64,000 nt of DNA, taken from an uncultured Methanomicrobiales archaeon (GTDB taxonomy: Archaea > Halobacteriota > Methanomicrobia > Methanomicrobiales > Methanospirillaceae). How positions within the stretch are numbered: the stretch's first letter is position 1; every line of letters starts with the position of its first letter. Below the pieces are notes generated by a model. The model ran no database searches and was not told the origin of the DNA. It saw nothing but the letters and a program-made list of their open reading frames with translations. Both the position numbers and the translations under genes were made by a program. Of this stretch, positions 4,387-61,835 are shown piece after piece. The DNA lies in contig CAVWXH010000009.1 in NCBI GenBank assembly GCA_963758915.1, forward strand, positions 32,001-96,000, read 5' to 3'.

Positions 4387-4669
4387 GGCTCTGTAGAACA
4401 ATAACGGTTCCTCTGACATCACAAAATTCTATCTTCTTGCAGATTGGGAATTCCAAAATTTCGTCACGCTCCTGGGGCTCATAGCCCGCCGCTTTGGCGA
4501 CCCGGTTGGGATAGAGGCTATCCCAAAATACTCTGAATTGAATGAGCCTTCGAGAAACCCTGCCCGAAGGATATCTTAATGGGGGGTGGGGCAGGGAGGG
4601 GGTGAAACCCCCTCCTGTCTTCGTATTTCCCTCTTATTTTTTATGACACCGAAGGGTTTCAACAAAGCG
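4387..4669 (+). mobile_element. MITE-like element with IS903-like TIRs and 9-bp target site duplication
   Basis: Left end GGCTCTGTAGAAC, right end GTTTCAACAAAGCG; AAAAAATTC at 4378-4386 and 4670-4678; no transposase. Confidence 0.8.
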
Positions 4670-4971
4670 AAAAAATTCAGGAGATCCGCCTGACGGGATA
4701 GCTGAGGTATCAGGTACTGATACCGGACCCGGGATTCCGCATACTATGAAACTGAAGACTTTTGACCTGCTACTGCGGGATTCCGCCATGCACAGCAGAT
4801 AGGGGCCAGGGCTGCACATTGTCAGGATGCAGGTTGAAGCATACGGGGCACGTATCAACGGAATTACCAGACCGTATTGTGCAGGAAATGTGATTACAGC
4901 TCCGTTATATGAACATGAAAGCGGCACAATATTTTTTAGTACGGAATGTAAGGTTGCGGGTTCTGAACTAC

Positions 4972-4988
4972 AAATATTATAAATATTT
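4972..4988. promoter_or_regulatory. Inverted repeat overlapping the probable TATA box of the regulator-Hsp20 operon
   Basis: AAATATT-ATA-AATATTT overlapping TTATAAATA, 11 bp before the ORF start. Confidence 0.45.
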
Positions 4989-4999
4989 ACAGGACTAAC

Positions 5000-5632
5000 A
5001 TGAGGTTACTAATGCTCGACAGCATCGACGTTGCCCGCGTTCTGGACATCCTTGGGAACAGGAACCGAAGACGGATTATTGAACTCCTCAGGGAGAAACC
5101 GTGCTTTGTCACAGAGATCTCTGACCGGCTTACACTCTCCCCTAAAGCAGTTATCGAGCACCTGCAGATGATGGAACGAGAAGAGATCCTTGCATTCTGG
5201 ATGGACGAGAGGCGGAGAAAATACTATTTTCTTTCCAACGACATCAGCATCGTAGTGAGCCTTCAGAAGCAGGAAAGGTCTGAGGTTTCAAGAGATAGCA
5301 ATACCGGTACCGGGTTCCTGCGGTCCCTGCTGACACTCCGGAAGATGGTGCAGGCCAGGGACGAACTTGTTTCAAGGGTAGGGCACCTTGATAATGACAT
5401 CGGGGAGCAGATGCGTGAGATTGAAAAGAGAGCGAAAAGTATCCTTCAGAACGAAACAGAACTCGATCTGGTGATTGCACTTTCCCATTACCATCTCACA
5501 CTCTCCGACCTTGTCGAGCTGACGGGAAAAGAAGATGTCGAGATCATCCCGGCGGTCGAAGACCTGATATCCCGCGGGATCATCGAGCAGGAAGGCCCCC
5601 AATACCGTATCTGTGATATGTATGCCGAATAA
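5000..5632 (+). CDS. ArsR-family wHTH transcriptional regulator, Phr/HSR1-like heat-shock regulator
   Basis: LDILGNRNRRRIIELL..PCFVTEIS..KAVIEHL..RRKYY plus coiled coil; overlaps an Hsp20-like gene. Confidence 0.8.
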   Translation: MRLLMLDSIDVARVLDILGNRNRRRIIELLREKPCFVTEISDRLTLSPKAVIEHLQMMEREEILAFWMDERRRKYYFLSNDISIVVSLQKQERSEVSRDSNTGTGFLRSLLTLRKMVQARDELVSRVGHLDNDIGEQMREIEKRAKSILQNETELDLVIALSHYHLTLSDLVELTGKEDVEIIPAVEDLISRGIIEQEGPQYRICDMYAE

Positions 5633-6044
5633 AGAAAACCCGTATGATGATTTTCTCAAGTCCCTTGCAAAACTGGTAGAGGACATCATGAAGGACCTGC
5701 CTGATGATGAGCATGCGAGGTTTATCGGGTGTACGATCATTGCAGGGGGGACCAGCGGGACACCTCCTTTCTTGGAGGGGAATCAGGGTAACTGCAACGA
5801 GATCAGGTATGAAATCATCGAATCCGATGAACGGATATTTATTACCACGCAGCTGCCACCCGACATAAAAAATGCCCCTTATGCGGATATTGACCCGGAT
5901 TCAGTACGGATCTGTATCGATGACCTTAACGAGCTGATCCCGCTCCCTGTACATATCGACGTCATCCACAGCTTTTACATCGTCAGGCACGGGGTAATGG
6001 ACATCGTACTGAAAAAAAAGCCCTCCTACCCGGACATCAACTAA
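5622..6044 (+). CDS. Hsp20/CS-like domain protein
   Basis: YEIIESDERIFITTQLP and HGVMDIVLKK alpha-crystallin-like ends; coupled to the regulator. Confidence 0.65.
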   Translation: MPNKENPYDDFLKSLAKLVEDIMKDLPDDEHARFIGCTIIAGGTSGTPPFLEGNQGNCNEIRYEIIESDERIFITTQLPPDIKNAPYADIDPDSVRICIDDLNELIPLPVHIDVIHSFYIVRHGVMDIVLKKKPSYPDIN

Positions 6045-6118
6045 ATTGTCCAGCTCGCTATTTTTAATAGTAACTCGTGGATTGTAAAAAGGATTGGACT
6101 TTTATTGTCATCCTATCC

Positions 6119-6369
6119 AAATTTATCTTACAGATTATGGGGTTCCAAAAATTCACCACGCTCACGGGGCTCATGGTCCGCCGCTTTGGCGACCCCGGTT
6201 GGGATAGTGAATAACCTCTAAATCTCTGAAATTTTCAGGGACATTACAGATGACCCCCCAGTGAATATCATATTTGGGGGTGGGGCAGGGGAGGGGTGAA
6301 ACCACCTCCTTTCTACGTATTCCCGCTTCTCATTTTTTAAAAAATAACACACAGAGTTTCAATAAAGCC
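6119..6369 (+). mobile_element. MITE-like repeat copy (core plus right TIR)
   Basis: cacgctcacggggctcatggtccgccgctttggcgaccccggttgggatag...ggggcaggggaggggtgaaaccacctcc...GTTTCAATAAAGCC. Confidence 0.75.
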
Positions 6370-6451
6370 CTTCTTTTTTTCAACCCGCAGAAATGTCAGA
6401 AGGCTCATAAACGAAAAAGGAATTATCTCCCGGATTACACGGGATACCGTT

Positions 6452-8635
6452 TCAGACCTTCACATGGGCGTCTGTCGTTGCCCACTCCGTAATTTTCCGC
6501 TCTTTCCTGTCATATTCATGGAACTGGCGGAGTGAGACCGTGAGATCCCGTGTGAATGCGAAGTACCCAATCTGGGTGCTGCGACATAATTTCATCGCCA
6601 TGTCCATCAGACCACGGGGGTCAGGTCTCGATTCACCAAGCCAGATATGGAAAATATTTCCCCCGTCCACGATCGGGAAGAAGACATGTTCGATCTCCAT
6701 GCGCTGTGCAAGTGTAATCCTTGCCCCGGGGGCGACATGTGTCCCATTCGTATAGTATATGGGGAGGTCACGGGTCGTCCCTATCCTTTTCAGTGACCCT
6801 TCGAGGTCTCCTTTGACAACCTTCTTTGCGGGTTCACGGAAGTCCTTGTTGAGCAGGTCTGAAACAGCGAATCGCTGGCCCGTTGTCTCGGCGGGTGTCC
6901 TTGCAAGCGCAATGGTCATCGAATGTTTTTCTGACAATTCCCTGGCATAGAGTTCCATCTCGGTCATCGCACGGACCGCGAGTTTGAATGCCTCTTTCGA
7001 TTCATGCAGTTGTGACCCGACATGGGCCTGCACCATCTCATTGACGCCGACAATCCCAATCGTGTAGACCAGTCCCTCGAGGTCTACGGCTATTGCACCG
7101 CGTTCTCCGGTGATCGGGTCTTTTGGCCTCTGCATCGCAAACGGCATCCTCCCATGTGCCCGGATAATTTCAAGCCAGCGCCGCTTGATATTGAAGACCT
7201 CAACTGCCACATCCATCATCAGGCGGAGTTCTGAAAAAAGCCGCCCGTCATCTCCTTCAGCCTTATACGCAGCACGGGGGCAGTTTAAGGAGACAACCTG
7301 CCAGGAGCCCATCGAGAAATGACGGCCCTCCTCGAAATACAACTTTTTATCAAATTCAGAGTCATTTTCCGCAACGCAGGAGAACTGGTAGGCACAACAC
7401 TGGTAGCAGGAGATACCTTTCCCTGCACCGCGATACCCGGGCATCTGGTTATCATAATAGGGAGTGCCGAATTTCGAGGCCAGTTCAAACGTGAGAAGAT
7501 AGAGCTCGCTGTAGGTCGGGAGGTCGGGGTGCGCCTGGTTATACTCATTCATCTCCTTCATGAATTCAGGTTCGATGCTGATTTCCGGTTTCGGGAAGGA
7601 GAAGGGCTTTCCCCATGAGTCCCCCTCAAGCATTACCTCCATGAGAGATTTGAAAAGGAGCCTCACTTCGCGTTCAAATTCCTGGTAGGTGCGTTTTGGT
7701 GCAGATTTTCCGTCCCAGATCTTCCCCTTGTAGACACAGGGCTTGTCTTTCCAGAGCGCAGGCACACCCGGGCATAGCTGAACAGACGAAAAGACGAGCT
7801 GGCCTCCCCGTGCAACCATCATCTGGGTCATCTCGTAGACAAACATCTGCATCATCTGCCTGATCTCGCTATAGGGCATCCCTTCGAAATAAGGTGCCAG
7901 GAATGTCAGGAAATTATAATAGCCCTGTCCGCCTGCAAAATTCGTCTGGGCACTCCCGAGTGCCTTGACCGCATGGAGCACGGCAACTTCTGCGCGCCTT
8001 GCGGGTCCGGCTACTGATGCTTTTGTACCATTCCCGTCAGGCATGAGCCCGTAGTAAAAGAAGTACCTGAGGTCCCAGTCCTGGCAGAACGGACGTGTCC
8101 CGAAATACTCAAGGTCGTGGATGTGGATATCCCCTCTCAGATGATGGTCCGCAAGTTCAGGGGGCAACTGCAGGAGGTATTGTTCCTTGCTGATCTTGTC
8201 CGCCTTTTTCTTATGAGAAGTCTCAGCGTTTTCCTGGAGGTTGGCATTATCTTTTGCCTCAAATCCCCGCCCCACATCGATCAGGTGCGCATCGTATACC
8301 GGTGTACCAACCCTTGTGCATACATTCCTGTATTGGACAAGTCCCCGTTCCAGGAGCGAGATATTCATTATTTCGCGGATCAACGGCCCTGAAAGGGATT
8401 GCAGTCCCATAGAGAGAATTCTTCGTTCCACCGACAGCGCGATCTCCCGGGCGAGTTCCTCATCCGCGCTGGTATACCCGTAAAATGTCTCAACGAGACG
8501 GGTTTCCTCCACTATCTGGCGGACGATCCGTTCCCGGTCCCACTCGATGATATGCCCGTCCGATGTCCGGACCGGGGGCAACGGGGGAATGAATATCCCA
8601 TCAAGTGTCTTCTGGCGGGTATCGCGCTTCTGCAT
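6452..8635 (-). CDS. nrdD: Anaerobic (class III) ribonucleoside-triphosphate reductase catalytic subunit, lacking C-terminal Zn/glycyl-radical domain
   Basis: N-terminal ATP cone, HLRGDIHIHDLEY, PFSFPKP, YQCCAY, TPAETT, YYTNGTH, DGGNIFH; ends without CxxC pairs or RxxGY. Confidence 0.92.
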   Translation of the reverse strand: MQKRDTRQKTLDGIFIPPLPPVRTSDGHIIEWDRERIVRQIVEETRLVETFYGYTSADEELAREIALSVERRILSMGLQSLSGPLIREIMNISLLERGLVQYRNVCTRVGTPVYDAHLIDVGRGFEAKDNANLQENAETSHKKKADKISKEQYLLQLPPELADHHLRGDIHIHDLEYFGTRPFCQDWDLRYFFYYGLMPDGNGTKASVAGPARRAEVAVLHAVKALGSAQTNFAGGQGYYNFLTFLAPYFEGMPYSEIRQMMQMFVYEMTQMMVARGGQLVFSSVQLCPGVPALWKDKPCVYKGKIWDGKSAPKRTYQEFEREVRLLFKSLMEVMLEGDSWGKPFSFPKPEISIEPEFMKEMNEYNQAHPDLPTYSELYLLTFELASKFGTPYYDNQMPGYRGAGKGISCYQCCAYQFSCVAENDSEFDKKLYFEEGRHFSMGSWQVVSLNCPRAAYKAEGDDGRLFSELRLMMDVAVEVFNIKRRWLEIIRAHGRMPFAMQRPKDPITGERGAIAVDLEGLVYTIGIVGVNEMVQAHVGSQLHESKEAFKLAVRAMTEMELYARELSEKHSMTIALARTPAETTGQRFAVSDLLNKDFREPAKKVVKGDLEGSLKRIGTTRDLPIYYTNGTHVAPGARITLAQRMEIEHVFFPIVDGGNIFHIWLGESRPDPRGLMDMAMKLCRSTQIGYFAFTRDLTVSLRQFHEYDRKERKITEWATTDAHVKV

Positions 8636-8905
8636 TTATGCACCTGCAAGAAATTGTGTGACCTTGTCTTCCCTGACATGTCCCCCAAAAAAGAGATCAG
8701 GGGATGTGAGGAAGTTGTCACCCTTCTGGAGGACGGGGGCCTCGCTGACGAATATCCCATTGATACGGAGTTCGGTCAGTGATTCGGCCGTGGACATGTC
8801 CCTCTCCTCGTACGGGATCGTGTGTCCTGTTAAATATTCTTTTAATAGTTCGCAGTTGGGACAAAGCTCAAGTGTATAGATGGTCAGTTGCGGTGAATCT
8901 GCCAA
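8636..8905 (-). CDS. nrdH: NrdH-like glutaredoxin
   Basis: YTLELCPNC redox motif, EAPVL; abuts nrdD; TTG start with GGGGTGA SD. Confidence 0.85.
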   Translation of the reverse strand: MADSPQLTIYTLELCPNCELLKEYLTGHTIPYEERDMSTAESLTELRINGIFVSEAPVLQKGDNFLTSPDLFFGGHVREDKVTQFLAGA

Positions 8906-9046
8906 TGTATCACCCCCCCTATCTCACGTACAATAGCGCTTAATTTTAAAAAAGTGTTCGATAGTTCTCCCGGGGCGCAAAGAAAATTAATTATCCCCGT
9001 ACCGGAAACAAGATATAACCATAACAGGATAAAGGAGGGGCCCGGA

Positions 9047-9586
9047 ATAGTCAGAGCATTTGTGGCAATCGACCTGTCACCTGAGATACGTGAGAAGATG
9101 CGTGAAGTACAGGAGGCAATCCGGAAGAGCGGGGCAAGAATCACACTCGTTGATCCTGCGATTATTCATATAACTATAAAATTTCTCGGGGAAATTGAGG
9201 CCCCGCGGGTCGGACCTGTCAGGGAAGCACTCAGTGAGGTCATACTTGAGCCATTTGACCTCACAATAACAGGTATTTCTGCAAATAATAACCGTAACCC
9301 CCGTGTTATATGGGGGACGGCAGGGGACAGTGGAGGATGCAGGCTCCTCTTCGAACAGGTTGAAACGGCACTCACTGCCATCGGCGTTCCACGGGAGGAG
9401 CGCGGGTTCACTCCCCATGCTACTATCGCAAGAGTAAAAGAATATCACCCGTCCCTCATGCAGTCAATCAGGCCATACCTCTCAGAAACACTGGGAGAAT
9501 GTCATATTTCCGGGTTCAGCCTGAAAAAAAGTACCCTTACCCCGACCGGACCGGTATATGATACAATTTTGGAGGTTATGTGGTAA
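9047..9586 (+). CDS. thpR: RNA 2',3'-cyclic phosphodiesterase (2H family); start at ATA 9047 or GTG 8954
   Basis: RAFVAID, HITIKFLG, PRVIW, FTPHATIAR (two HxT motifs), S.LTPTGPVY. Confidence 0.92.
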   Translation: MVRAFVAIDLSPEIREKMREVQEAIRKSGARITLVDPAIIHITIKFLGEIEAPRVGPVREALSEVILEPFDLTITGISANNNRNPRVIWGTAGDSGGCRLLFEQVETALTAIGVPREERGFTPHATIARVKEYHPSLMQSIRPYLSETLGECHISGFSLKKSTLTPTGPVYDTILEVMW

Positions 9587-10971
9587 CAAGATCTGCACTT
9601 GAAACATCAGTGCTCGAACGGATCAGGCCGCAGGCTGATGAAAGGGTGCATATCCTTACGGTAGCAGGTGAGCTGATTGACCTGGTCAACCGGAGCGGGA
9701 GGGCGACAGGGATGGTTGTAGGATCCGTTGCACGTGACACGTGGATCCGTGGTGACCGGGACCTCGATATATTCATGCTGTTCCCACCGGACCTCACACG
9801 GGAAGAACTCGAAGATGAGGGGCTTACACTTGCAAGGAACATTGCGGAATCAGCGGGGGGTACCTACCGTGAAAAGTATGCAGAACACCCATATATCAAT
9901 GCAATTATTGATGGCCTTGATATTGATATTGTCCCCTGTTACGCGGTACCAGATCCGGCAGCGATCAGGAGTGCCGTGGACAGGACACCGTTCCACACCC
10001 GGTATATAAAAGACCGCATCAGCAGCCTTATCGATGACGTGCTCCTTCTTAAACAATTTGCAAAGAATGGCGGGATTTATGGTTCTGACCAGATGACCGA
10101 AGGGTTCTCAGGGTACCTTTGTGAACTCCTTGTGTTCCATTACGGGGGTTTTATCCCGCTTCTTGCGGCAGCTTCAGACTGGTGGCCGGGAGTCCTTATC
10201 GATTGTTCAGACCACCGGACAAAGACATTTCATGAACCGCTGGTCGTGGTTGACCCTGTAGACCCGGGGAGAAATGTATCTGCCTCGGTATCACTCACCC
10301 GGATGTGCGAATTTATCGAGTTGTGCAGGGGTTATCTCGAGCGTCCCGGGGAAGGATTTTTTTTCCTTCCGGCCCCTCGTGCTGAGTCCAATGAAAAGGC
10401 AGAAATGCTGGTTGAAAAACGAAAAACCGCAATCTATACGCTGACATTCCCGACACCACCGTATATCGAGGAGATTGTAGTACCCCAGCTTCGAAAAAGT
10501 CTTGAGGCGATCTCCGCACTCCTTGCCAGGCATGAGTTCATTGTAAACCGTGCAGCGTATTGCATGAAAACGGACCGATGCATGCTCTTGTTTGAATTAC
10601 TCACCGATTCACTGCCACCCGTAACACGCCATTTCGGCCCGCCATTATGGGCCCGGGAAAATGCGAGGCAGTTTTCCGAAAAGTACATCCAGGGAATGGC
10701 AGAAGGACGCCTTTTTTCAGGGCCTTATATCGAAAACGGGATCTATGTCGTTGAACTGGAGCGGCGCTATTCATCCGCAGGTGACCTTCTGGCGTCACCC
10801 GATCTCCTGGAAGTCGGGCTCGGACGCCATGTCAGGTCGGAAATCCGGGATTCCCTTTCAGTCAGGAAAGGCCCGGATGGCATAGACGAGGAGTTTGCCA
10901 CCTTTATCACCTCATTTCTTGAAAAGTCATCCCCCCTTACACAGATCAGGCATCTGGAGAAAGGGAGGTAG
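9580..10971 (+). CDS. cca: Archaeal class I CCA-adding enzyme
   Basis: VGSVARDTW..DRDLDIF, YAEHPY, SAVDRTPFH, GFSGYLCELL, VVDPVDPGRNV. Confidence 0.95.
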   Translation: MVTRSALETSVLERIRPQADERVHILTVAGELIDLVNRSGRATGMVVGSVARDTWIRGDRDLDIFMLFPPDLTREELEDEGLTLARNIAESAGGTYREKYAEHPYINAIIDGLDIDIVPCYAVPDPAAIRSAVDRTPFHTRYIKDRISSLIDDVLLLKQFAKNGGIYGSDQMTEGFSGYLCELLVFHYGGFIPLLAAASDWWPGVLIDCSDHRTKTFHEPLVVVDPVDPGRNVSASVSLTRMCEFIELCRGYLERPGEGFFFLPAPRAESNEKAEMLVEKRKTAIYTLTFPTPPYIEEIVVPQLRKSLEAISALLARHEFIVNRAAYCMKTDRCMLLFELLTDSLPPVTRHFGPPLWARENARQFSEKYIQGMAEGRLFSGPYIENGIYVVELERRYSSAGDLLASPDLLEVGLGRHVRSEIRDSLSVRKGPDGIDEEFATFITSFLEKSSPLTQIRHLEKGR

Positions 10972-11165
10972 GTGTTCATTGTGCCGGCAATCACTTTTTT
11001 TATCCGGCGGTTACCTTTGATTCGCCGGGTTTACGGTACCGGTCCCCGGATGCTGTTATGAGATACCTTCATATCTCCCCAAATTAGAAGATTCAATAAT
11101 TAAATCCCGGCAGGACTCCGGAGTAAGGCATGAAACCTTGCGTGGGTACCGACGGGCGGAGGATC

Positions 11166-12812
11166 ATGAACACTGAGGATGCTTTATCGAGGAACTCGAT
11201 CATTGTCATCGTATTATCGATCATTTTGATTGTCGCCGCTGCAGGGGCAATGATTTATTTCTCGTCGAGCCCTGACAAAGTGCCGCGTATGAATGCAACG
11301 GTTGAGGCATCGGGGAATGTGGTATATCTCTATCATGACGGAGGGGACCAGTTTCCAAAAGACCGCCTCCTGGTCCGGATAAACGGGGAGGACATCCCGG
11401 ACAGCCAGGTCTCACTGCTTCACTCGCAGACCTGGCCATGGACAGCAGGAAAAACTATAAAAGTCCAGTATTCCGGTAGTAGCAGCCCGGAAACGGTCCA
11501 GGTGATATACAGGAACGGGCAGAAGCAGACCGTGATAGTCTCGCAACAATTACACAGTGGTACCCCGGCCCCGGTTACCACCCCGGTCACGGTTGTACCG
11601 TCCACACCGTCATCCACCATTATGCCGGGAGTTACTCAGGGAGAGATCGTGCCGGTACAAACAGAGGTGATCCCGGGTATCCTGCCTATTACCATGGTCA
11701 TTCCACAGGTGACCCCTACTCCACCGCGGGCAGATTTCGTTGCGATGCCGACTTCAGGGCAGCTCCCGCTCGATGTGCAGTTTACAGACCTCTCAACAGG
11801 CATTCCCACCAAATGGTCATGGAATTTCGGAGATGGAAGTGTATCAACAGAACGAACCCCGGTACACAGGTATACCACCCCGGGCAGCTATACGGTCAGC
11901 CTCGTCGTGGAAAATAAATTCGGGTCTGATAAAAAGTCGATTCCCGGGTATATCTCGGCGGGCATTGCACCGGTAGCAAATTTTGCGGCTTCGCCACGTG
12001 ATGGTACGGCACCGCTGGAAGTTCATTTCACCGACCTTTCGACAGGGCAGCCCGTGGTATGGTCATGGGACTTTGGTGACGGTATGAAATCATCAGAATC
12101 AAACCCAACACATATCTATTCGTCCGGGGGTTCCTACCAGGTGATCCTCACGGTGGCAAATTCCTACGGGGCAGATACACGGATCAAGAATTCCTATATT
12201 TCCACGACCACCTCCCCCAGCCACGATGTGTATCTCTACGGAAGTACTTCAGGTTATCTGGCACCTGAAGGATATATTGCCTTCACCGTCACTACCACGG
12301 ACTCCTGGGTTAAGATTGCCGGAAGAATTTACCGGTTCATGGAAGGGGACAACGTCCAGCTCATTATCATGGACCCTTCATCCGGGGAGATCGATGCATC
12401 TTCATCCGCCATTACCGGCTTCAACTTTAATAAAGTAAACATGTACGTGAACGGGGCCCTTGTCCAGGAGGGAATTGTCACTGCTATCGGCATCACCGGG
12501 TATGGGAATTACCGTTCGTCAACGACGCTCATCATTCCTGCAGGAGATAGTACTACCGTATTCTTTGCAGACGGAGGCAGGACACTTATCAGCCCCGGAC
12601 AGCAGGTCATCATCAGGAACTTCAAACCCGACTCAACCGGCAGAATGGTCTTTACCAAAACAACCGGCGGAGTATTCTACAAAGGGGGGCTGAATCCTGG
12701 CAGCTCGTATGATACAATTAACCAGGCAATAAAAAACACTGCTTCCCGGTCATCTGGGTTTCGGGAGGGATGTTTTCTTTTCCTTTTTTTGTCAGGATGC
12801 AAGGTAATTTAA
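11166..12812 (+). CDS. Surface protein: type IV pilin-like N-terminus, Thr/Pro linker, two PKD domains (C-terminus possibly frameshifted)
   Basis: EDALS plus hydrophobic helix, LYHDGGD, two VQFTDLS..W.W.FGDG..P.H.Y PKD repeats. Confidence 0.85.
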   Translation: MNTEDALSRNSIIVIVLSIILIVAAAGAMIYFSSSPDKVPRMNATVEASGNVVYLYHDGGDQFPKDRLLVRINGEDIPDSQVSLLHSQTWPWTAGKTIKVQYSGSSSPETVQVIYRNGQKQTVIVSQQLHSGTPAPVTTPVTVVPSTPSSTIMPGVTQGEIVPVQTEVIPGILPITMVIPQVTPTPPRADFVAMPTSGQLPLDVQFTDLSTGIPTKWSWNFGDGSVSTERTPVHRYTTPGSYTVSLVVENKFGSDKKSIPGYISAGIAPVANFAASPRDGTAPLEVHFTDLSTGQPVVWSWDFGDGMKSSESNPTHIYSSGGSYQVILTVANSYGADTRIKNSYISTTTSPSHDVYLYGSTSGYLAPEGYIAFTVTTTDSWVKIAGRIYRFMEGDNVQLIIMDPSSGEIDASSSAITGFNFNKVNMYVNGALVQEGIVTAIGITGYGNYRSSTTLIIPAGDSTTVFFADGGRTLISPGQQVIIRNFKPDSTGRMVFTKTTGGVFYKGGLNPGSSYDTINQAIKNTASRSSGFREGCFLFLFLSGCKVI

Positions 12813-13038
12813 GGTTGTATCCCTGATGGGGCACCAGATATCTGGTATTTTTCATTACCGTTCCGAAATAGTTATACATCACAAGATCGCAAACAATAAG
12901 CAGACAGGACATGTCGTCGTAATAAAAACAACGATATAACCTGGTATGTTACCTCATTCCCTGTTGTACTACTACGGGGGCATGGATACCCGGTAAAAAA
13001 GGAGGAATCACAATTATGCCAATGGGAGATTCAAGATC

Positions 13039-13947
13039 ATGAGAAACAGATTATTTGCCATTACGCTCGCTCTTATCATCCTGGGTATGGTCCTTATCTT
13101 ACCCGTATCTGCAGCAGATCAGCCGGCTGCATCCGTATCACAGGAGAAAGTAATCATATATGCGACTAATTTTTCGACAAACCCGTTATGGCAGACTAAT
13201 AATCCGACGCGCTATTACTGGGAGCCGCAGAAGGGGATGTACCACTATCTTATTCAGCCAGGTACCGGGGGATATTCATTCATCCCGGTGAATTATAACG
13301 GGGAATCTTTTACCCTTGAATATGATTATTACCCGCTTATTACCGATAAGGAACTATCGTTCCAGTTCGGAATGGGCAGCAATGAAATGGATATCACCCG
13401 TGGTACCAATGTGTTGTCCAAATTTACCAACAAGAAAAACGGCAAGCTGATGTGGCTCCAGGTGATCACCCAGAGCAATAAGCTGGCTGAAGTGAGCAGC
13501 GCCCATGACAGCTATGGCGGCCCCACGACGAATTTCGAAGATAACCAGACGTACCACGTCATTGTCCGGTACAATAAAGAACTTATGAACGCGGATATAA
13601 AAGTCAGCTATAAAAATAATCAGACGATGTTATGGGGATACTATGTAACACTGGGGGAGGAACTCCATACCATTAAACGACTTATGATTTCGTCCATCGG
13701 GATGTACGGGAATACAGAATCTGTCGCAGAAGGATATATCGATAATGTGGAACTATCAACGATGCGTGAGATAATTCCGGTCCCGACAACTGCAGCCCCT
13801 TTAATCACGACCCCGGTCACCACCGCAACAACAGTCCGGGCGACAACCACTGCAGCACCGACAAAGTCCCCCGGCACACCGGTCACTTTTCTCCTGGCGG
13901 TGGGTGTTGCAGGGATAACTGCATTAATACTTAACAGAAAGAATTAA
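13039..13947 (+). CDS. Secreted/cell-surface protein with Thr-rich linker and PGF-CTERM-like anchor
   Basis: Signal peptide ending VSA; C-terminal TKSPG + hydrophobic helix + RKN. Confidence 0.7.
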   Translation: MRNRLFAITLALIILGMVLILPVSAADQPAASVSQEKVIIYATNFSTNPLWQTNNPTRYYWEPQKGMYHYLIQPGTGGYSFIPVNYNGESFTLEYDYYPLITDKELSFQFGMGSNEMDITRGTNVLSKFTNKKNGKLMWLQVITQSNKLAEVSSAHDSYGGPTTNFEDNQTYHVIVRYNKELMNADIKVSYKNNQTMLWGYYVTLGEELHTIKRLMISSIGMYGNTESVAEGYIDNVELSTMREIIPVPTTAAPLITTPVTTATTVRATTTAAPTKSPGTPVTFLLAVGVAGITALILNRKN

Positions 13948-14035
13948 TCCATTTTTTTCCGGGCATCCCAAAAAAACTGCCACTACCAGATCACTTAATG
14001 CAGGGGAACAATAAACCCAGTCTCCAGGAATACCC

Positions 14036-14896: not shown

Positions 14897-14910
14897 AACC
14901 GTGAAGTAAT

Positions 14911-14934
14911 GCCCCCCACGAATGCATGGGGGGC
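14911..14934. terminator. GC-rich hairpin between convergent genes
   Basis: GCCCCCCA-CGAATGCA-TGGGGGGC perfect 8-bp stem 14 bp after the stop. Confidence 0.4.
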
Positions 14935-15025
14935 TACCGGTCAGGTTATCCTTGTTTCAGGATGTATTTTCTATAATTGCCGATAATGCCGCTGGGAAAC
15001 TAAACAGAAAAAAAATTCGAGGTGT

Positions 15026-15934: not shown

Positions 15935-16035
15935 ATCTTTGTTGAAATACACTTGAACGGGAGGCTTACACCCGGGCTGTCAAAATACCTCGTTCAAAAT
16001 TTTCCATAGATTGGGGTCCGTTTTGTCATTTCCAA
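15935..16035 (+). repeat. Left arm of the MITE-like repeat
   Basis: ctttgttgaaatacacttgaacgggaggcttacacccgggctgtcaaaatacctcgttcaaaat matches 17438 and 55678 arms. Confidence 0.7.
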
Positions 16036-16173
16036 TGAAAATCCCATCGACAATTTCATTGTTTATGCCCGACAGCGGGGCGGTCACAGGCGCTTAATAT
16101 GAAAAACCCCACTGGCAATTTCATGTTGTATGCTTGTGGTCTTGTGGCATCATGCCTGTTTTGATGGGAAATG

Positions 16174-16436
16174 CACTTTGTTGAAATGCTCTGAAACTAT
16201 CTTACCTGCTTGAAGTATTTCGAAATTTACTCAACGCCCCGGGGGCTCATGCTCCGCCGCTTCGGGGATCCCGGTTGGGATAGGAAATGATCTCTTCAAT
16301 CCCTTAAAATTTCAGGGTTTCTACCGCTGAACCCTGCCCGGGAGTATCGTAATGGGGGTGGGACAGGGATGAGTTGGAAACCCCTCGTATCAACGTATTT
16401 CCTCTTACGTTCAATATGCAGGGTTTCAACAAAACC
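16174..16436 (+). mobile_element. MITE-like repeat copy (short form, both TIRs)
   Basis: cactttgttgaaat...ggggctcatgctccgccgcttcggggatcccggttgggatag...accctgccc...GTTTCAACAAAACC. Confidence 0.72.
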
Positions 16437-17270: not shown

Positions 17271-17437
17271 TTGAACCTCTCCTTCCTGCCGGGTATCCAA
17301 ACGAAAATAATGTGAGGCAACCGGATAAATGGGTGGGATTTGAACTGCAGTGAGACCGTCATATCCTGCGAATAAAAGCCGGGTAAACACCTGGCAACAT
17401 GCTCAAAAAAAAATTGTTGTAAAAGTAAGAAAAATTC

Positions 17438-17807
17438 GCTCTGTAGAAACACACATGAACGGTGAGTTCATACCCGAACCATGAAAATGCCATGTTCAAA
17501 ATCTCTTCATATTGGAGTTCATTCACGCATTTACATGGAAAATCCACTCAAATCTATCTTGCAGATTGGTAATTCCAAAATTTCATCACGCTCCTCCCGG
17601 GGCTCATGGCCCGCCGCTCTGGCGACCCCGGTTGGGATAGAGACGATTCCCCGAATACTCTGAATTTAATGAGCCTTCAGGAAACCCTGCCCGAAGAATA
17701 TATTAATGGGGGTGGGGCAGGGAGGGGGTGAAAACCGGTTGAAACCCCCTCATGTCTTCGTATTTCCCTCTTATTTTTTATGACACAGAAGGGTTTTCTA
17801 CAAAGCC
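17438..17807 (+). mobile_element. MITE-like element, longest copy (left arm + core, both TIRs)
   Basis: GCTCTGTAGAAAC...GTTTTCTACAAAGCC; flanks GAAAAATTC / GAAATATTA (7 of 9 identical, possible eroded TSD). Confidence 0.8.
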
Positions 17808-21129: not shown

Positions 21130-21244
21130 GGCTTTGTTGAAACCCTTCGGTATCATAAAAAATAAGAGGGAAATACGAAGAATGGAGGGGGTGAAACCCA
21201 TTCCTGTCAGACATGCGGTTTGGGGTTATTGGCGGTGACCCTGC
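21130..21244 (-). repeat. Right arm of the MITE-like repeat, inverted
   Basis: GGCTTTGTTGAAACCCTTCGGTATCATAAAAAATAAGAGGGAAATACGAAG is nearly the reverse complement of 4619-4668; fills the gap between two convergent stops. Confidence 0.78.
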
Positions 21245-27564: not shown

Positions 27565-27593
27565 TCCTTTTTTTCCATACGTGCCTGAACAGA

Positions 27594-27675
27594 CCCCGTT
27601 AGAAGGAGGTTTTGAACGAGGTATTTTCAATCGTCTGCGTGCGAGCTTCCCTTTCATGTCTGTTTCAACAAAGCC
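27594..27675 (-). repeat. Left arm of the MITE-like repeat, inverted
   Basis: Reverse complement GGCTTTGTTGAAACAGACATGAAAGGGAAGCTC..GAAAATACCTCGTTCAAAA. Confidence 0.75.
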
Positions 27676-40108: not shown

Positions 40109-40161
40109 TACCTTTTTATCAGGTTGATACAGCTGATATGAAAAATTCCGTGAATCATTTG

Positions 40162-40253
40162 AAAGGCAACCTTTTTCATGCTCACCTATGAGCCAAAGGC
40201 TCATAGCACGCTTTGTTGAAACACACATGAACAGGAAGTTCACACCAGGGCGG
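40162..40253 (+). repeat. Hairpin flank plus left arm of the MITE-like repeat
   Basis: CTATGAGCC-AAA-GGCTCATAG hairpin (40186-40206), then CGCTTTGTTGAAACACACATGAAC; paralleled at 55631-55720. Confidence 0.75.
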
Positions 40254-40808
40254 TTAATACAGGATATTGACAGGATCCAGGCCCTGTGGGACCGTCCTCC
40301 TGATACTGAACGATGCACCGCCAGGGGGTTTGACTTCGAGGGTGAACTGTGTTCGCGGCTGGATCTTTTTAGTTGGTTTCGCATCGATCGTCCAGACCTG
40401 GTTATCCGAAAGGACCCTTTCACTCGTCCCGGAAACATTCCATTCCCCGTCCCCGGCGATACCTGAGGTATACTTCAGGGACTCAAGCAGGCCTTCCGTG
40501 CTTATGATCATCTGGCTGCCCCTGAAATCGACAGGGGTCCCGCCTGTCGAAAGGGTTACACCAAACTCGACTGTGTCGATGCCCAGGGAAGTATCTGATG
40601 CCAGTCCATAGATATCCCCGACAACCAACACATTTGATGCAACACCCTGGACCCCTGCATTGGCTACCTTCTGGCTGACCTGGGTGGTAAAAAGCCCTGC
40701 CCCGAGCATAATATAGGTGAACACAGAGGCCACGGTGATGAACGCAATCAGTACAATTGCGGCCTCTATACCGGTAAATGCATCTTCATGCAGGGGAGGT
40801 TGTTTCAA
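40254..40808 (-). CDS. flaB: Archaellin (archaeal flagellin)
   Basis: Class III signal EDA|FTGIEAAIVLIAFITVASVF; FTLEVKPPGGA..RTVP. Confidence 0.88.
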   Translation of the reverse strand: MKQPPLHEDAFTGIEAAIVLIAFITVASVFTYIMLGAGLFTTQVSQKVANAGVQGVASNVLVVGDIYGLASDTSLGIDTVEFGVTLSTGGTPVDFRGSQMIISTEGLLESLKYTSGIAGDGEWNVSGTSERVLSDNQVWTIDAKPTKKIQPRTQFTLEVKPPGGASFSIRRTVPQGLDPVNILY

Positions 40809-50342: not shown

Positions 50343-50610
50343 GGCTTTGCTGACATTCTCTCAAATCTATCTTCCAGATTGGTAATTCCAAAATTTCGTC
50401 ACGCTCCCGGGGCTCATGGCCCGCCGCTTTGGCGCCCCGGTTGGGATAGAGACTATCCCCCAATACTCTGAACTTTCCTTCCAATGTCCCAATCGAACCC
50501 TGCCCGAAGAATATCTTAATGGGGGTGGGGCAGGGAGGGGGTGAAACCCCCTCCTGTCTTCGTATTTCCCTCTTAATTTTTTTATATTACCAAAGTGTTT
50601 CAACAAATCC
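50343..50610 (+). mobile_element. MITE-like element (short form, both TIRs)
   Basis: GGCTTTGCTGACA...core nearly identical to the 4430-4640 core...GTTTCAACAAATCC; between convergent genes. Confidence 0.8.
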
Positions 50611-50676
50611 GGTCCCTTATAGTTCAGGGTGTTAATCTGCCGAACATGGATAAAATAATAATTGGATTTGCAGAGT

Positions 50677-53305: not shown

Positions 53306-53934
53306 TGAAAATAATCAGCGGTGGATCACCATAACTCCCTGGTTTCCAGCTGCTGACTGGTTACGGTACTGGAATAGTCCTGCAAAGACATTGAAACGAC
53401 TGTTCCCTGCCCGACAGACGACCTGCCCCTTCCATAGACCTGTTATCTGTGCCATTGAAGTAGCCTGGCATCGTGTGTTTTGTATCCTGCACCCTGATTT
53501 TTTTCAGACGAGGTCCGGGTTCTCAACCTCCGATGCAATGTTTTTAGGTGATGTGCAACAAAAGTTATACCTCATCAGCTAAAAAAACCGGGGTGAACAG
53601 CTATACCAGGAAAGACAAGGATAATCACGTATATTATTGCTTTAACAGCCGTTACAATCATTTTCCTGCAGACGCTGTACCGGAATTTTTATGATACGTT
53701 TCCCTGGTCGGTCGATGCATTTCATACGGTAAAATACAAGGCCAGCCTTAGTTTCATCCACCCCGACAGCCTGACATTCTGGATCCTCCTCACCGGATTA
53801 ATCCTCGCCTTCGTTGTCCTGTATTTCCACCCGGTGGAACAGGAACATGGTAAAAGAATGTGACCTGCCCAGAGCAACCCTGAAAAATGTAAACACTATA
53901 ATAGAACATACAACGAAACTTTGAGTGAACCCGC

Positions 53935-54042
53935 ATGGCCCTGTTAAACCGTGAAACAAAACTGCTGGTATTTCTGGCCATTATCGCAATAATCAGCAAT
54001 ACAATTCCCTTTTACCTGCTACTGAATTATGGAAGGCCATGA
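53935..54042 (+). CDS. Candidate 35-aa single-pass membrane microprotein
   Basis: MALLNRETKLLVFLAIIAIISNTIPFYLLLNYGRP; GAGTGA SD-like site upstream; below the ORF-track cutoff. Confidence 0.5.
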   Translation: MALLNRETKLLVFLAIIAIISNTIPFYLLLNYGRP

Positions 54043-54089
54043 GGGGTTTTTCCATATCCTACCGATTTGCCCGTTTTTAACCGGCTTTC

Positions 54090-55447: not shown

Positions 55448-55630
55448 AGGGGTACATTACTGTATTGCATGCAAGGGCGTAAATCCAGCTGATCCAACAG
55501 AGTACCATATGAAGAACTGTTGGTTACCAGACAGACAATTATTCAAAATGCGACCGGAGTTGTATAAAGCCGCAATGGGAAAGATTATATTTTTTTAGGC
55601 TGATATGAAAAACTTTGGCTAAACAATCTG

Positions 55631-55790
55631 GAAGGTCACCTTTTTCATGCCCATCTATAAGCCAGAGGCCCATAGCACGCTTTGTTGAAACACACATGAA
55701 CGGGAAGTTCATACCCGGGCTATGAAAATACCTCGTTCAAAATTTCTATATATGGGGGTCTGTTTTGTTATTTTCATGGGAAACCCTGCA
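55631..55790 (+). repeat. Hairpin flank plus left arm of the MITE-like repeat
   Basis: aaggtcacctttttcatgc..ctataagccagaggcccatagca then CGCTTTGTTGAAACACACATGAACGGGAAGTTCATACCCGGG. Confidence 0.75.
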
Positions 55791-55812
55791 AGATTAAAAA
55801 AAAGGGAATGCA

Positions 55813-56022
55813 TTGACAGGAGGGGTTTCACCCCCTCCCTTCCCAACCCCATTAAGATAGTATTCGGGCAGGGTATCCCGAAGGCTCATTAAATTCAGAG
55901 TATGTTGGAATAGTCTCTATCCCCGCCGGGGCGCCGAAGCAGCGGGAAAGAGCCCCGGGAGCGTGACTAAATAGTAAGAATAACCTGAATGTTGCAAAAT
56001 AGATTTAAGGCGGGTTTTTAAA
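55813..56022 (-). repeat. Inverted core of the MITE-like repeat
   Basis: Reverse complement aaatctattttgca..cacgctcccggggctc..ggcgccccggcggggatagagact..ccctgcccgaa..gggagggggtgaaacccctcctgtc. Confidence 0.75.
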
Positions 56023-59656: not shown

Positions 59657-60004
59657 TCACCTTTTTCCGGCTTTCCTCTCATTATCCTGCCTGCACTTTT
59701 CCATTACGCTACGGGATAATTCATCAAAATTTTCCTGGTAGCGGACCATGCTCTCCCGGTTAAATGAATAATACATGTGGTTTCCCTCCTTTCTTGACGT
59801 GATAATACGCACATTCTTCAGGATCTTTACGTGTTGCGAGACAGCTGGTTGCGATATCCCGAGCATTCCTGCAAGATCATTGACACCGAGGGCGCCACTC
59901 AGGTCATTTGCCAGGAAATATATAATGCAGAGCCGGTTGTAATCGCCAAGGGCCTTGAACACCCCTGCCATCTCTTCTACGAACTGCCTGTTGCATCCAC
60001 TCAT
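59657..60004 (-). CDS. ArsR/SmtB transcriptional regulator
   Basis: FKALGD.NRL, SQPAVSQH..LK, RKEG..YY. Confidence 0.92.
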   Translation of the reverse strand: MSGCNRQFVEEMAGVFKALGDYNRLCIIYFLANDLSGALGVNDLAGMLGISQPAVSQHVKILKNVRIITSRKEGNHMYYSFNRESMVRYQENFDELSRSVMEKCRQDNERKAGKR

Positions 60005-60188
60005 TATAATATAATAATATTCTTATATACTTAATGGTTATGGACAGGTGTATGCAAGACCCGGTCATCTCCGGTTATCGGCCATATTGAAGAACTTTAA
60101 AACAGGAATTTTTTTCCTTTTACGGTTATGCATTGTTTCCATACCCCTTCCGGAAACAATTTACGATCACATTTACAATAACTATCAG

Positions 60189-60701
60189 ATGCAACAGGTT
60201 CCCGATCAGGCAGTTTCAGAAGTGATTGGGACAATCCTCATGGTTGCAATGGTTGTAATGATTGCGGGGATCACTGCAGCGTTAGTATTGGGAATGCCAT
60301 TTGTCCCCCAGAAACCAACTCTTTCAGGGTTCACGGTAGAAATAATACAGGTTGCCAATGGCACCCTGCCAGGTTCACAAACCGTGCCGGTGATCAGTTT
60401 TTACCAGGTATCCGGAGATAAGCTGGCATTTTTCGGGCCAAATGGAACAAATATCAGGCTTACTGATCCCGGTGGTAATACCAGAAGTGTTAATTTCTCA
60501 GGCACAGGATCTGAAATCCGGATTGGGGAGCGGTTTCTCGTCTTCAGGGAATCAGGAAGCCCCGGTAATTACCTGGTCACTAATAATCAAAGCAGCATTC
60601 CGGGCATTGAACCATTCACCCCGCACGGTACCTGGCGCTTTATCATTACTGATGAAAAAGAGACGAACATGGTAATCTTCGACAAAGATCTAACTCTGTA
60701 A
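60189..60701 (+). CDS. Archaeal type IV pilin
   Basis: Class III signal DQA|VSEVIGTILMVAMVV. Confidence 0.85.
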   Translation: MQQVPDQAVSEVIGTILMVAMVVMIAGITAALVLGMPFVPQKPTLSGFTVEIIQVANGTLPGSQTVPVISFYQVSGDKLAFFGPNGTNIRLTDPGGNTRSVNFSGTGSEIRIGERFLVFRESGSPGNYLVTNNQSSIPGIEPFTPHGTWRFIITDEKETNMVIFDKDLTL

Positions 60702-60710
60702 CAGCAGGGA

Positions 60711-61022
60711 TTGTGGCCACCAGGGGGGATACCGATTCAGGATTTACAATATTTTCTGCTGCTGTTGGCAGTACTAAATAGTATAGCTTTTTTTTCCTAT
60801 TACCGTGACAAGAGGAACGCTGAGAATAACAGATGGAGGATCCCTGAACGTACCCTGTTGATGTGGGGTTTGATTGGCCCTTTCGGGTCATATCTCGCAA
60901 TGCGGATGTTCAGGCACAAAACGCAGAAAACAAAATTCCTGTTGGTGCCGGTTTTTCTTGCAGTGCAACTGGTGATAATCACGTTCGTTGTGGCAGTGTT
61001 TTTTCCGGAGATTCTCCTCTGA
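60711..61022 (+). CDS. DUF1294 membrane protein
   Basis: AF..Y..DK..A..WRIPE.TL..G..G..AM..FRHKT.K. Confidence 0.88.
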   Translation: MWPPGGIPIQDLQYFLLLLAVLNSIAFFSYYRDKRNAENNRWRIPERTLLMWGLIGPFGSYLAMRMFRHKTQKTKFLLVPVFLAVQLVIITFVVAVFFPEILL

Positions 61023-61101
61023 CCTTCTGATACCAGTCACCAGAGTAGTGAAATGTACAAACCCTGCTTCTTTAATACATAGTCCTATCATATTTTCCTC
61101 A

Positions 61102-61587
61102 ATGCGGACCAACAGGCACCAATATTTTCTTGACCTGGCATACCGGTGTGCCCACCAGGGTACCTGCCTGCGGCGCAATTTTGGCGCCATCATCGTCGAT
61201 GAGTATAATACGATCGTTTCCACGGGTTACACCGGTGCCCCCAGGAAACAGCCGGACTGCACGGAACTGAACAACTGCTGGAGAAAGGACCACAATATCC
61301 CATCAGGTTCAAACTATGAACGGTGCAGGAGTGTCCATGCAGAGATGAATGCCCTTCTCCAGGCAGGAAAACTTGCACGCGGGTGTACCCTCTACCTTGC
61401 AGGCTACGATGTGGAGACAGAAGACCTGACCCGGATCTGGCCGTGTTTTCTCTGTTCAAAAATGATCGTCAATAGTGGCATCAAAAACGTCATTATGAGG
61501 ACCGGAACAGAAGAGTTCAGCGAGATGGATCCCATGGCCCTTTACCAGATGCGGAGCATGGAAGCACTGGGTGATGAGATACAATAA
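61102..61587 (+). CDS. dCMP/cytidine deaminase family protein
   Basis: YFLDLA..TCLRR.FGA, HAEMNA, PCFLC. Confidence 0.9.
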   Translation: MRTNRHQYFLDLAYRCAHQGTCLRRNFGAIIVDEYNTIVSTGYTGAPRKQPDCTELNNCWRKDHNIPSGSNYERCRSVHAEMNALLQAGKLARGCTLYLAGYDVETEDLTRIWPCFLCSKMIVNSGIKNVIMRTGTEEFSEMDPMALYQMRSMEALGDEIQ

Positions 61588-61669
61588 GCCTTTTGAGGGT
61601 TAAAAAACACAAATGCCCGGCTATATTGACACCCCCTGACATCTGTAGTATAGATCAAGGGGGTATTCT

Positions 61670-61835
61670 GAAAAACTATTCAGGTGAACCCTGCCCACAG
61701 AATAGTTAGGGGGGGCAGGGGGTCAACCCCCCCTGTCTAGCGTTGCTTCGCTTTCCACAACATACTGCAGGATATCAACAGGGCAAATAACTACAGGAAT
61801 ACCCGGTTTTGTTGAAACACTTCAAATTGGAATTT
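61670..61835 (+). repeat. Degenerate right half of the MITE-like repeat plus a lone TIR
   Basis: gaaccctgccc..ggggcagggggtcaacccccc..gatatcaacagggc; GGTTTTGTTGAAACAC at 61805. Confidence 0.6.

Follow-up and report, generated by a model that had tools for sequence, protein, structure and literature searches.

The window, a 64-kb stretch of DNA from an uncultured Methanomicrobiales archaeon, carries 14 segments on both strands, all of which (14/14) belong to one repeat family, as the first-pass annotation had claimed. That claim is upheld by an excess of terminal inverted repeats (TIRs), with GGCTTTGTTGAAAC matched 10 times in the window (≤2 mismatches) against 0.59 matches expected and 10 reached in 0 of 100 shuffles, and by self-BLAST and nhmmer searches of the window, which retrieved every listed segment. 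The total extent has grown from the 2.5 kb given earlier to about 2.8 kb, or about 4% of the window. The segments are a mixture of complete elements, single modules, truncated ends and degenerate relics, built from a core (R) body and from end modules (L and X). In the list below, L074 is the closest relative, about 93.5% identical over window positions 2-16757.

4106..4343, + strand: degenerate core (R) relic, ends not recognizable (nhmmer short-form profile positions 10-241, E 2e-17)
4378..4386, no strand: left target duplication AAAAAATTC of element 4387-4669 (read directly; the 9-mer is single in L074 at the empty site)
4387..4669, + strand: complete short-form element, 283 bp, ends GGCTCTGTAGAA... 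and ...TTCAACAAAGCG, absent from the closest relative (BLAST; nhmmer R-body match 4406-4668; true left end 4387)
4670..4678, no strand: right target duplication AAAAAATTC of element 4387-4669 (read directly; comparison with L074)
6105..6369, + strand: short-form element, right TIR 6356-6369, left end eroded (TIR search; nhmmer R-body match 6105-6368)
15935..16436, + strand: composite of L module 15935-16044, a 130-bp spacer and short-form element 16174-16436 (L match 15937-16044; R-body match 16176-16435)
17437..17807, + strand: complete long-form element, 371 bp, with an L module in place of the R body's left TIR; flanks GAAAAATT and GAAATATT (7/8) (L match 17438-17545; R-body match 17540-17806)
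21130..21208, - strand: right-end fragment with exact TIR 21130-21143, 2 bp past the stop codon of ORF 20130-21128 (TIR search; R-body match 21131-21208)
27568..27675, - strand: solo L module with exact TIR 27662-27675 (TIR search; L match 27568-27674)
40132..40257, + strand: X module 40132-40208, ending in the hairpin TATGAGCC-AAAG-GCTCATA, then truncated L module 40209-40257 (self-BLAST; L match 40210-40257)
50343..50610, + strand: complete short-form element, 268 bp, target duplication not recognizable (R-body match 50343-50609)
55599..56010, + strand: X module 55599-55677, L module 55678-55786 and inverted R body 55764-56010, far TIR missing (L match 55679-55786; R-body match 55764-56010, - strand)
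61677..61780, + strand: degenerate relic of the R body's second conserved block (nhmmer positions 142-261, E 8e-6)
61805..61818, + strand: orphan TIR-like 14-mer GGTTTTGTTGAAAC with 1 mismatch, a weak member (TIR search)

The long copy previously placed at 17438-17807 is real but starts at 17437 and measures 371 bp, and its flanks, reported earlier as a 7/9 match, form an 8-bp duplication that agrees at 7/8 positions (GAAAAATT/GAAATATT). The spacer that holds the 6105..6369 copy is also occupied in two relatives, in the same orientation in L032 and in the opposite orientation, with an X module, in L074. The composite at 15935..16436 is likewise present in L074, with about 375 bp of its interior deleted there, and the structure at 55599..56010 is a recurrent arrangement in which an L module replaces the right TIR.

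Ends, modules and copy number

The basic unit of the family is a noncoding element of 250 to 283 bp with inverted ends of 14 to 16 bp, GGCTYTGTWGAAAYSC. Across 86 termini the ends read GGCT[C/T]TGT[T/A]GAAA[T/C], with most positions at ≥85%; the inverted ends recognized earlier are thus real, while the consensus GGCTTTGTTGAAAC has had to be revised. The variant at position 9 is usually the same at both ends of a copy (39 concordant versus 18 discordant; alignment pair 56-383). Copies of the family have a modular build, in which the core element may or may not bear L and X modules at its ends. In the longer forms, either terminus is taken over by a 111-bp L module carrying its own copy of the end, and other forms have an extra X module of 80 to 90 bp with the related tip GGCTGGTATGAAAAA added outside an end. 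In X-bearing copies the target duplication lies outside X (8/8 in L024, 7/8 in L042 and 7/8 in L072).

Complete copies measure 250 to 283 bp in the short form and 340 to 396 bp in the long form, which refines the earlier range of 260 to 370 bp, and all are under about 500 bp and contain no transposase gene. A scan of 68 ORFs of the window revealed no transposase domain, in agreement with the earlier statement that the window holds no transposase, and the one scanned ORF of ≥100 amino acids that lies mostly within an element copy (50367-50693) matched no Pfam family, so that the elements appear to be noncoding. The short-form profile gave 9 R-body matches by nhmmer in the 64 kb, the copy density of the window is about one per 7 to 10 kb and near copies in other genomes occur at about 1 per 10 kb. 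From these densities, the suggestion of hundreds of copies per genome is best restated as a plausible order of at least 100.

Target duplications, empty sites and distribution

The target-site duplication of the family is 8 bp and not 9 bp. In a census of 44 unique complete short copies, with shuffled flank pairings (1,000 runs) as the control, 13/44 had a perfect 8-bp duplication (shuffled mean, 0.30; maximum, 3 in 1,000) and 20/44 matched at ≥7/8 (shuffled mean, 0.64; maximum, 4 in 1,000). At 9 bp, 0/44 copies were perfect and 3/44 matched at ≥8/9. The 4387 copy entered this census with a wrong left boundary and was scored as a miss, and therefore at most one copy shows 9 bp. Among the long forms (n = 17), two had perfect 8-bp duplications and six matched at ≥7/8, compared to a shuffled mean of 0.42. 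Outside these 20/44 short and 6/17 long copies, no recognizable duplication is left. The duplicated targets are rich in A+T (77.5%, versus 49% overall). The perfect 9-bp duplication AAAAAATTC described in the first-pass annotation for the 4387-4669 copy is real, but since the norm is 8 bp, it is atypical as a feature of the family.

Exactly where the window has element 4387-4669 between two copies of AAAAAATTC, L074 reads GAGAAGAAAAAAATTCAGGAG with nothing inserted. A second presence/absence case, L042 versus L019, is less precise, so that relatives provide one precise and one approximate empty orthologous site. Together with the TIR excess and the duplications, the empty site bears out the view of these segments as nonautonomous elements with TIRs and target duplications. 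The sole window copy with a precise empty site is also the one that duplicates nine bases, against the 8-bp norm.

A scan with the core pattern gave at least 95 loci, and 164 distinct R-body copies were collected from nine Methanomicrobiales/Methanoregulaceae assemblies and the window (10 genomes). Six bacterial loci from the pattern scan had no R-body match and are chance matches; among the matches listed, the family is specific to Methanoregulaceae-type (Methanoregula-type) methanogens. Close relatives differ from one another by gains and losses of copies, by inversions and by deletions inside copies. A text search of the literature, which did not cover the ISfinder catalogue, found no published description, and in agreement with the earlier opinion, the family appears to be undescribed, although miniature inverted-repeat transposable elements (MITEs) as a kind are already well known, archaea included. 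The family is unusually dense and common to many uncultured Methanoregulaceae, which are important methane producers in freshwater and peat. The copies will fragment assemblies of short reads and give rise to spurious ORFs (e.g., 50367-50693, mostly inside a copy), and they can serve as presence/absence markers for strain tracking.

The segments are very probably copies and relics of one Methanoregulaceae-type MITE family moved by a DDE transposase encoded elsewhere, with 8-bp duplications. Such a transposase would recognize the ends and then excise or copy the element, and the 8-bp duplication would result from insertion into A+T-rich DNA cut with a stagger of 8 bp. Mobilization in trans is something that we infer, as is the identity of the enzyme.

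The mobilizing enzyme

With the duplication length corrected from 9 to 8 bp, the hunt for the mobilizing enzyme takes a new direction. Neither the window nor 1.4 Mb of flanking DNA taken from nine assemblies yielded an autonomous element with the family's ends, none of the TIR pairs 600-3000 bp apart encloses a matching transposase, and no transposase with the same TIRs turned up in this related DNA or the window; the only transposase seen was that of an IS630-type IS nested inside a copy. Nor was any IS4/IS5-type transposase seen in the sampled 1.46 Mb, with queries among which there was no IS903 protein.

Two known kinds of element pair GGC-type ends with 8-bp duplications: the archaeal IS5-family clade of ISH28, ISH19 and ISHvo1, and the IS6 family. 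As partner, our tentative first choice is an ISH28/ISH1-like transposase from the 8-bp clade of the archaeal IS5 family. ISH28, which we take to belong to the "ISH1 group" of ISfinder, has the end GGCTCTGGTGAATCGC on pNRC200 and encodes a PF01609 transposase; by eye, this end matches the family consensus at 12/14 positions and differs at positions 8 and 13. A perfect 8-bp duplication was present in 4/6 ISH28-related haloarchaeal copies checked, and the duplication of ISH1 is given as 8 nt in PMC7002104. The clade and ISH1 thus share with the methanogen family the GGCTCTG...GAA ends, the 8-bp duplication and an archaeal host. They differ in that ISH28, ISH19 and ISHvo1 are 938-bp autonomous elements of haloarchaea and that no relative of the ISH28 transposase was found near the methanogen copies in the sampled DNA, where a profile of seven ISH28-type sequences had no match at E values up to 10 among 14,080 six-frame ORFs and tblastn gave a best E value of 0.17. 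There is a parallel in the haloarchaeal MITEs (the MITEHsal series and ISH2), which are described in PMC7002104 as small, noncoding, TIR-bounded archaeal elements with target duplications that are moved in trans and whose class is set by the IS that their ends resemble, those of Halobacterium having been assigned to such classes in this way. These elements belong to another lineage, and the methanogen family differs from them in its much higher density (about 4% of the window) and its exchangeable modules.

An IS6-family (IS26-like or archaeal IS6-like) transposase is a rather unlikely partner. IS6 elements are described as having 8-bp repeats, GG tips and a cTGTt motif, as including two catalogued MITEs, at 227 and 336 bp similar in size to the methanogen copies, and as abundant in archaea, including methanogens (PMC7986276), and the conserved G1, G2, G7 and G10 of the IS6 consensus GGTTCTGTTGCAAA, as given in PMC6807381, are all found in the family ends, along with the TGT core; mean identity of this consensus to the family termini is 9.55/14. 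However, the family has GAAA where IS6 has CAAA ("gaaa" for "caaa" in 84/86 termini). Moreover, IS26-type movement is described as forming cointegrates (PMC7986276), and simple 260-bp insertions would therefore need later resolution. In the sampled DNA, the search for a relative of Tnp26 gave a best E value of 0.99 and an IS6 motif had no match, both being weak searches because archaeal IS6 transposases are ≤25% identical to bacterial ones according to PMC6807381.

The IS903 group (IS5 family), which the first-pass annotation had proposed as the source of the transposase, is a poor fit and very unlikely, even though no other known end comes nominally closer. IS903 itself is an autonomous bacterial element of about 1 kb, unlike the noncoding archaeal family of 250 to 400 bp. 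The consensus matches the IS903 end GGCTTTGTTGAATA at 12/14 positions, and over the 86 termini IS903 has the highest mean identity (10.30/14). With means of 9.65 for ISH28, 9.55 for the IS6 consensus and 9.37 for IS26, however, the others follow closely, and IS903 cannot be singled out by its end sequence alone. The ends of IS903 and IS903B, as given in PMC8477213 and PMC10569121, start GGCTTTGTTGAA, and the T/T end variant of the family is identical to the IS903 end over the first 12 bases (PMC8477213). The 9-bp duplication around the 4387-4669 copy would also suit this group, IS903B being reported to make 9-bp repeats (PMC10569121), but perfect duplications in the family number 13/44 at 8 bp and 0/44 at 9 bp. 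At the family level, IS5 may still hold by way of the archaeal 8-bp clade. Below that clade we rank first the IS6-like enzymes and then the IS903 group, and the rest of the probability goes to other or unknown partners.

The conserved interior and gene 3' ends

Mean column conservation reaches 0.92 and 0.90 in two internal blocks of the element, compared to 0.83 and 0.89 for the ends and 0.67 to 0.70 for the rest, and the same holds in 26 copies without the search pattern. The blocks comprise a GC-rich double hairpin and a G-quadruplex motif, G5-T-G4-CA-G3-A-G5, that overlaps a GGAGGGGG/CCCCCTCC hairpin. This four-tract G-run motif occurs in 61/88 copies, and 5/6 such motifs in the window lie within copies. 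The copies favor gene 3' ends, 53/131 of them lying between convergent genes versus 220/1,090 background spacers. The conserved blocks and the gene-end bias are a testable lead on a possible rewiring of transcription termination in methanogens by such elements.

It is unlikely, though conceivable, that the blocks are functional cargo and that the MITE family, as their vehicle, places a structured module of DNA or RNA at the 3' end of one methanogen gene after another, hundreds in all. The basis of this reading is that the internal blocks are conserved like the transposase-recognized ends in at least ten species-level genomes. If it is true, candidate roles of the module are those of terminator or insulator, protein-binding site and small RNA, and the exchangeable end modules L and X would be the mark of several transposases in competition for one cargo.

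Another reading, which we consider decidedly doubtful, is that the repeats are kept mainly for the use of the conserved interior by the host or the element, as structured RNA, as a protein-binding or terminator-like module or as G-quadruplex DNA, with transposition explaining only their spread. The block conservation, the retention of the G-run motif and the enrichment between convergent genes are all consistent with it, as are two insertions kept at orthologous sites in relatives. Against it, there is little base-pair covariation (80.1% of cells paired versus 79.2% in shuffles, with few double changes), Rfam gave no match at the gathering score over the whole window (in 17400-17850 the only match was at chance level, E 0.8) and the copies turn over between close relatives by gain, loss, inversion and internal deletion. 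The 3'-end enrichment is also expected from selection against harmful insertions or from a preference for A+T-rich targets.

Conservation of the two internal blocks at the level of the ends is not what one would expect of a MITE that is purely selfish and decaying.

Composition and distribution of the repeat family

We find that the elements are real, lineage-specific and modular and that they very probably constitute a MITE family with 8-bp target-site duplications. The MITE reading had been put forward in the first-pass annotation, and it is borne out by an empty site, inverted ends, an excess of duplications and the lack of a transposase domain in the window. MITEs as a class are already known, and the methanogen family is a new member. 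Every segment originally listed as part of one repeat family was found again by self-BLAST and by nhmmer with profiles from window copies, the one at 61805-61818 being a TIR-like 14-mer and nothing more. Their summed length is about 2.8 kb, which is 4% of the window. The end motif GGCTTTGTTGAAAC, allowing at most 2 mismatches, has 10 matches in the 64-kb window compared to 0.59 expected, a count reached in 0 of 100 shuffles of the window.

Segments located by nhmmer in the window (R body, core element with inverted ends; L module, optional end module)
4106-4343, R body
4406-4668, R body (real start 4387)
6105-6368, R body
16176-16435, R body
17540-17806, R body
21131-21208 (-), R body
50343-50609, R body
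55764-56010 (-), R body
61677-61780, R body
15937-16044, L module
17438-17545, L module
27568-27674 (-), L module
40210-40257, L module
55679-55786, L module

The window has methanogen-type content, its genes including those for 4-HFC-P synthase, archaeal flagellin and DUF2099. A transposase domain was found in 0 of its 68 ORFs, in agreement with the initial claim that no transposase is present, and there was no RNA family by Rfam at the gathering score and no tRNA gene by ARAGORN. Two stretches, 42145-43309 (about 1.2 kb) and 53306-54089 (about 0.8 kb), are without an ORF of at least 100 aa on either strand and without an Rfam match.

The inverted ends of the family are GGCTYTGTWGAAA, and 86 termini gave the consensus GGCT[C/T]TGT[T/A]GAAA[T/C][C/G]C. 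Both ends of one copy tend to carry the same variant at position 9 (columns 56 and 383 of alignment A1), which suggests that two end subfamilies exist. The short form, consisting of the R body, is 250 to 283 bp long. The L module is 111 bp including its own outer end and has a single fixed junction with the body; of 59 L matches, 31 stand in place of the left end in the same orientation and 20 replace the right end in inverted orientation (long forms), and 8 are solo. A further module, X, of 80 to 90 bp, lies outside an end in about 20 copies, begins with GGCTGGTATGAAAAA and terminates in the hairpin TATGAGCC-AAAG-GCTCATA. In X-bearing copies, the duplication lies outside X (8/8 bases in L024, 7/8 in both L042 and L072).

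Species-representative genomes were scanned with the internal pattern CCGCCGCT-N7-12-CCGGTTGGGATAG, which has 5 matches in the window compared to 0 expected. The scan returned at least 95 loci, 80 of which were retrieved together with their flanking DNA. Among the matches listed, 89 loci lie in nine Methanomicrobiales/Methanoregulaceae assemblies and 6 are bacterial; the latter are chance pattern matches since the profiles find neither R body nor L module there. With the profiles mapped to contig coordinates, the nine assemblies and the window hold at least 164 distinct R-body copies and at least 59 L modules. In the neighborhood of copies, the density is about 1 per 10 kb, and the window has 9 R-body matches in 64 kb. 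The L module is lineage restricted, as it is missing from two assemblies, of which 244 kb and 127 kb were sampled. Spread via plasmids or viruses was rejected because distant BLAST found no similarity to the 370-bp copy in plasmid or phage collections. Literature searches with the end strings and with MITE plus Methanoregula or Methanomicrobiales found no published description of this family; a 2026 survey of IS elements in archaea, in its accessible portion, touches on MITEs only in passing and reports one Methanoregula genome with 12.8% IS content.

Target-site duplications and empty sites

Among 44 unique short copies with a profile match reaching both ends, the 8 flanking bases were identical in 13 and matched at 7 or more positions in 20; over 1000 shufflings of the pairings, the corresponding means were 0.30 and 0.64 and the maxima 3 and 4. 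With 9 bases compared, no copy of the 44 was perfect and 3 matched at 8. The tabulation upholds the proposed target-site duplications but sets their length at 8 bp, and the 9-bp duplication does not hold as a family rule. It is present at 4387-4669, with AAAAAATTC on both sides, the single copy seen with 9 duplicated bases, which lie in an A-run; in the census, this copy had been given an incorrect left boundary and was scored as a miss. The 17 complete long forms included 2 perfect duplications and 6 at 7/8 or better, compared to a shuffled mean of 0.42; one of the 17, the window copy 17437-17807, has the flanks GAAAAATT/GAAATATT. The duplicated targets are 77.5% A+T compared to 49% overall.

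The closest relative, L074, is orthologous to window positions 2-16757 at about 93.5% identity (about 82% for the more distant L032) and provides the empty site sought in a close relative: where the window carries the element 4387-4669 between two copies of AAAAAATTC, L074 has a single AAAAAATTC 9-mer with nothing inserted. This is a precise empty site. A second case of presence and absence, L042 versus L019, is less exact. In the spacer that contains 4387-4669, L074 has about 1.3 kb that is missing from the window and that includes a long-form copy; this sequence (L074:11640-13140, orthologous to window positions of about 4780-4850) encodes an apparent response-regulator receiver protein, its domain having been recognized by eye in the alignment. 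The window and L074 share the composite at 15935-16436 with identical junctions, and about 375 bp of its interior is lost in L074. The spacer of 6105-6369 holds a copy in each of the three genomes (window, L032 and L074), the body in L074 having the opposite orientation and an X module.

Candidate transposase partners

Terminal 14-mers of candidate partners and their identity, averaged over the 86 termini
IS903, GGCTTTGTTGAATA, PMC8477213, 10.30/14
ISH28, GGCTCTGGTGAATC, L097, 9.65/14
IS6/IS26 consensus, GGTTCTGTTGCAAA, PMC6807381, 9.55/14
IS26, GGCACTGTTGCAAA, PMC8477213, 9.37/14

Since these identities range from 9.37 to 10.30 and control 14-mers starting with GG average 4.6 of 14, IS903, ISH28 and IS6/IS26 are not told apart by end sequence alone; the IS6/IS26 consensus has conserved G1, G2, G7 and G10 according to PMC6807381. 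The partner that we favor belongs to the archaeal IS5-family clade with 8-bp duplications: ISH28 on pNRC200 is IS5-like, 938 bp long, with ends GGCTCTGGTGAATCGC and a PF01609 transposase, 4 of 6 related haloarchaeal copies fetched have a perfect 8-bp duplication, and ISH1 makes an 8-nt duplication (PMC7002104). An IS6-family partner agrees equally in duplication length, and PMC7986276 describes IS6 elements as abundant in archaea, with 8-bp repeats and two MITEs, one of 227 bp and the other of 336 bp. However, IS26-type movement is by cointegrate formation (same paper), so that simple 260-bp insertions are not its direct product, and we infer a preference for the IS5-family clade on this basis. 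The IS903-group transposase originally proposed has the nominally highest end identity but is argued against by the 8-bp duplication, as IS903B generates a 9-nt repeat (PMC10569121). Any particular transposase family is nonetheless a tentative choice, more probably wrong than right.

No IS5/IS903-type transposase with the same TIRs was seen in the window and flanks (1.46 Mb sampled), nor was any full-length element with the family ends. TIR pairs 600 to 3000 bp apart in the window and the at least 95 loci listed enclosed ordinary genes, adjacent MITEs or, in L080, the IS630-type IS described below. Local tblastn of Tnp26 and five pNRC200 transposases gave no significant match in the 1.46 Mb, nor did an ISH28-type profile. 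In six-frame translations, an IS6 amino acid motif had 0 matches and an IS4/IS5 Y-R-E-K motif had 6, the single one put through Pfam (L057) being rejected as a DUF92 membrane protein. The 40 TIR matches outside profile matches were rejected as partner ends, being mostly diverged element ends. The sample is skewed toward the 10 kb on either side of copies, and most of the assemblies are fragmented, so this absence is weak evidence.

The one transposase that turned up belongs to an IS630/Tc1-type IS lying within a MITE copy at L080:790-1900. This IS has two ORFs, in which Pfam-type HTH and DDE_3 domains occur, and is bounded by inverted ends of its own, TAGTTAAGAACC...GGTTCTTAACTA; with these repeats and its position inserted in a copy, it was rejected as the partner. 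Pfam found no transposase among 34 representatives of multicopy nonsyntenic ORF clusters in the loci. Of the clusters left unexplained, the largest is a family of proteins that look secreted. A multicopy nonsyntenic family (L003:17395-18096, L003:18667-19350, L078:18871-19572 and 8 more) has proteins of 227 to 378 aa whose N-terminal segments are hydrophobic and whose C-terminal half is conserved; for L003:17395-18096, the single representative put through Pfam, there was no match at an E value of 1e-8.

Conserved interior and genomic location

An alignment of 88 copies contains two internal blocks whose columns average 0.92 and 0.90 in conservation, compared to 0.83 and 0.89 for the ends and 0.67 to 0.70 for the rest of the interior, and the 26 copies without the search pattern show the same block conservation. 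A four-tract G-run motif lies in the second block and is retained in 61 of the 88 copies, and 5 of the 6 canonical motifs of this kind (G-quadruplex) in the window fall within MITE copies (4581-4602, 6276-6296, 17708-17728, 50521-50541 and 55831-55850). Evidence for a conserved RNA fold was weak, and the structured-RNA reading was rejected: on the MFE-derived structure, 80.1% of alignment cells were paired compared to 79.2% in shuffles, RNAalifold gave 6 pairs and no more, and a relaxed Rfam search returned a single, chance-level match and no family.

Over the window and the at least 95 loci, 2 of 159 element clusters lie within long ORFs. The 131 clusters with a neighbor on each side occupy 53 convergent, 65 tandem and 13 divergent spacers, compared to 220, 674 and 196 of 1090 background spacers, so that spacers between convergent genes are about twofold enriched and divergent ones depleted (13/131 versus 196/1090). 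MITE clusters are thus overrepresented twofold at gene 3' ends and underrepresented in promoter-bearing spacers. In the window, a 371-bp long-form copy occupies nearly the entire spacer 17390-17814, between a desulfoferrodoxin-like ORF (17814-18194, minus strand) and the start codon of a TauE-like ORF (16467-17390, minus strand); either this copy supplies the promoter of the TauE-like gene or both flanking genes are transcribed through it.
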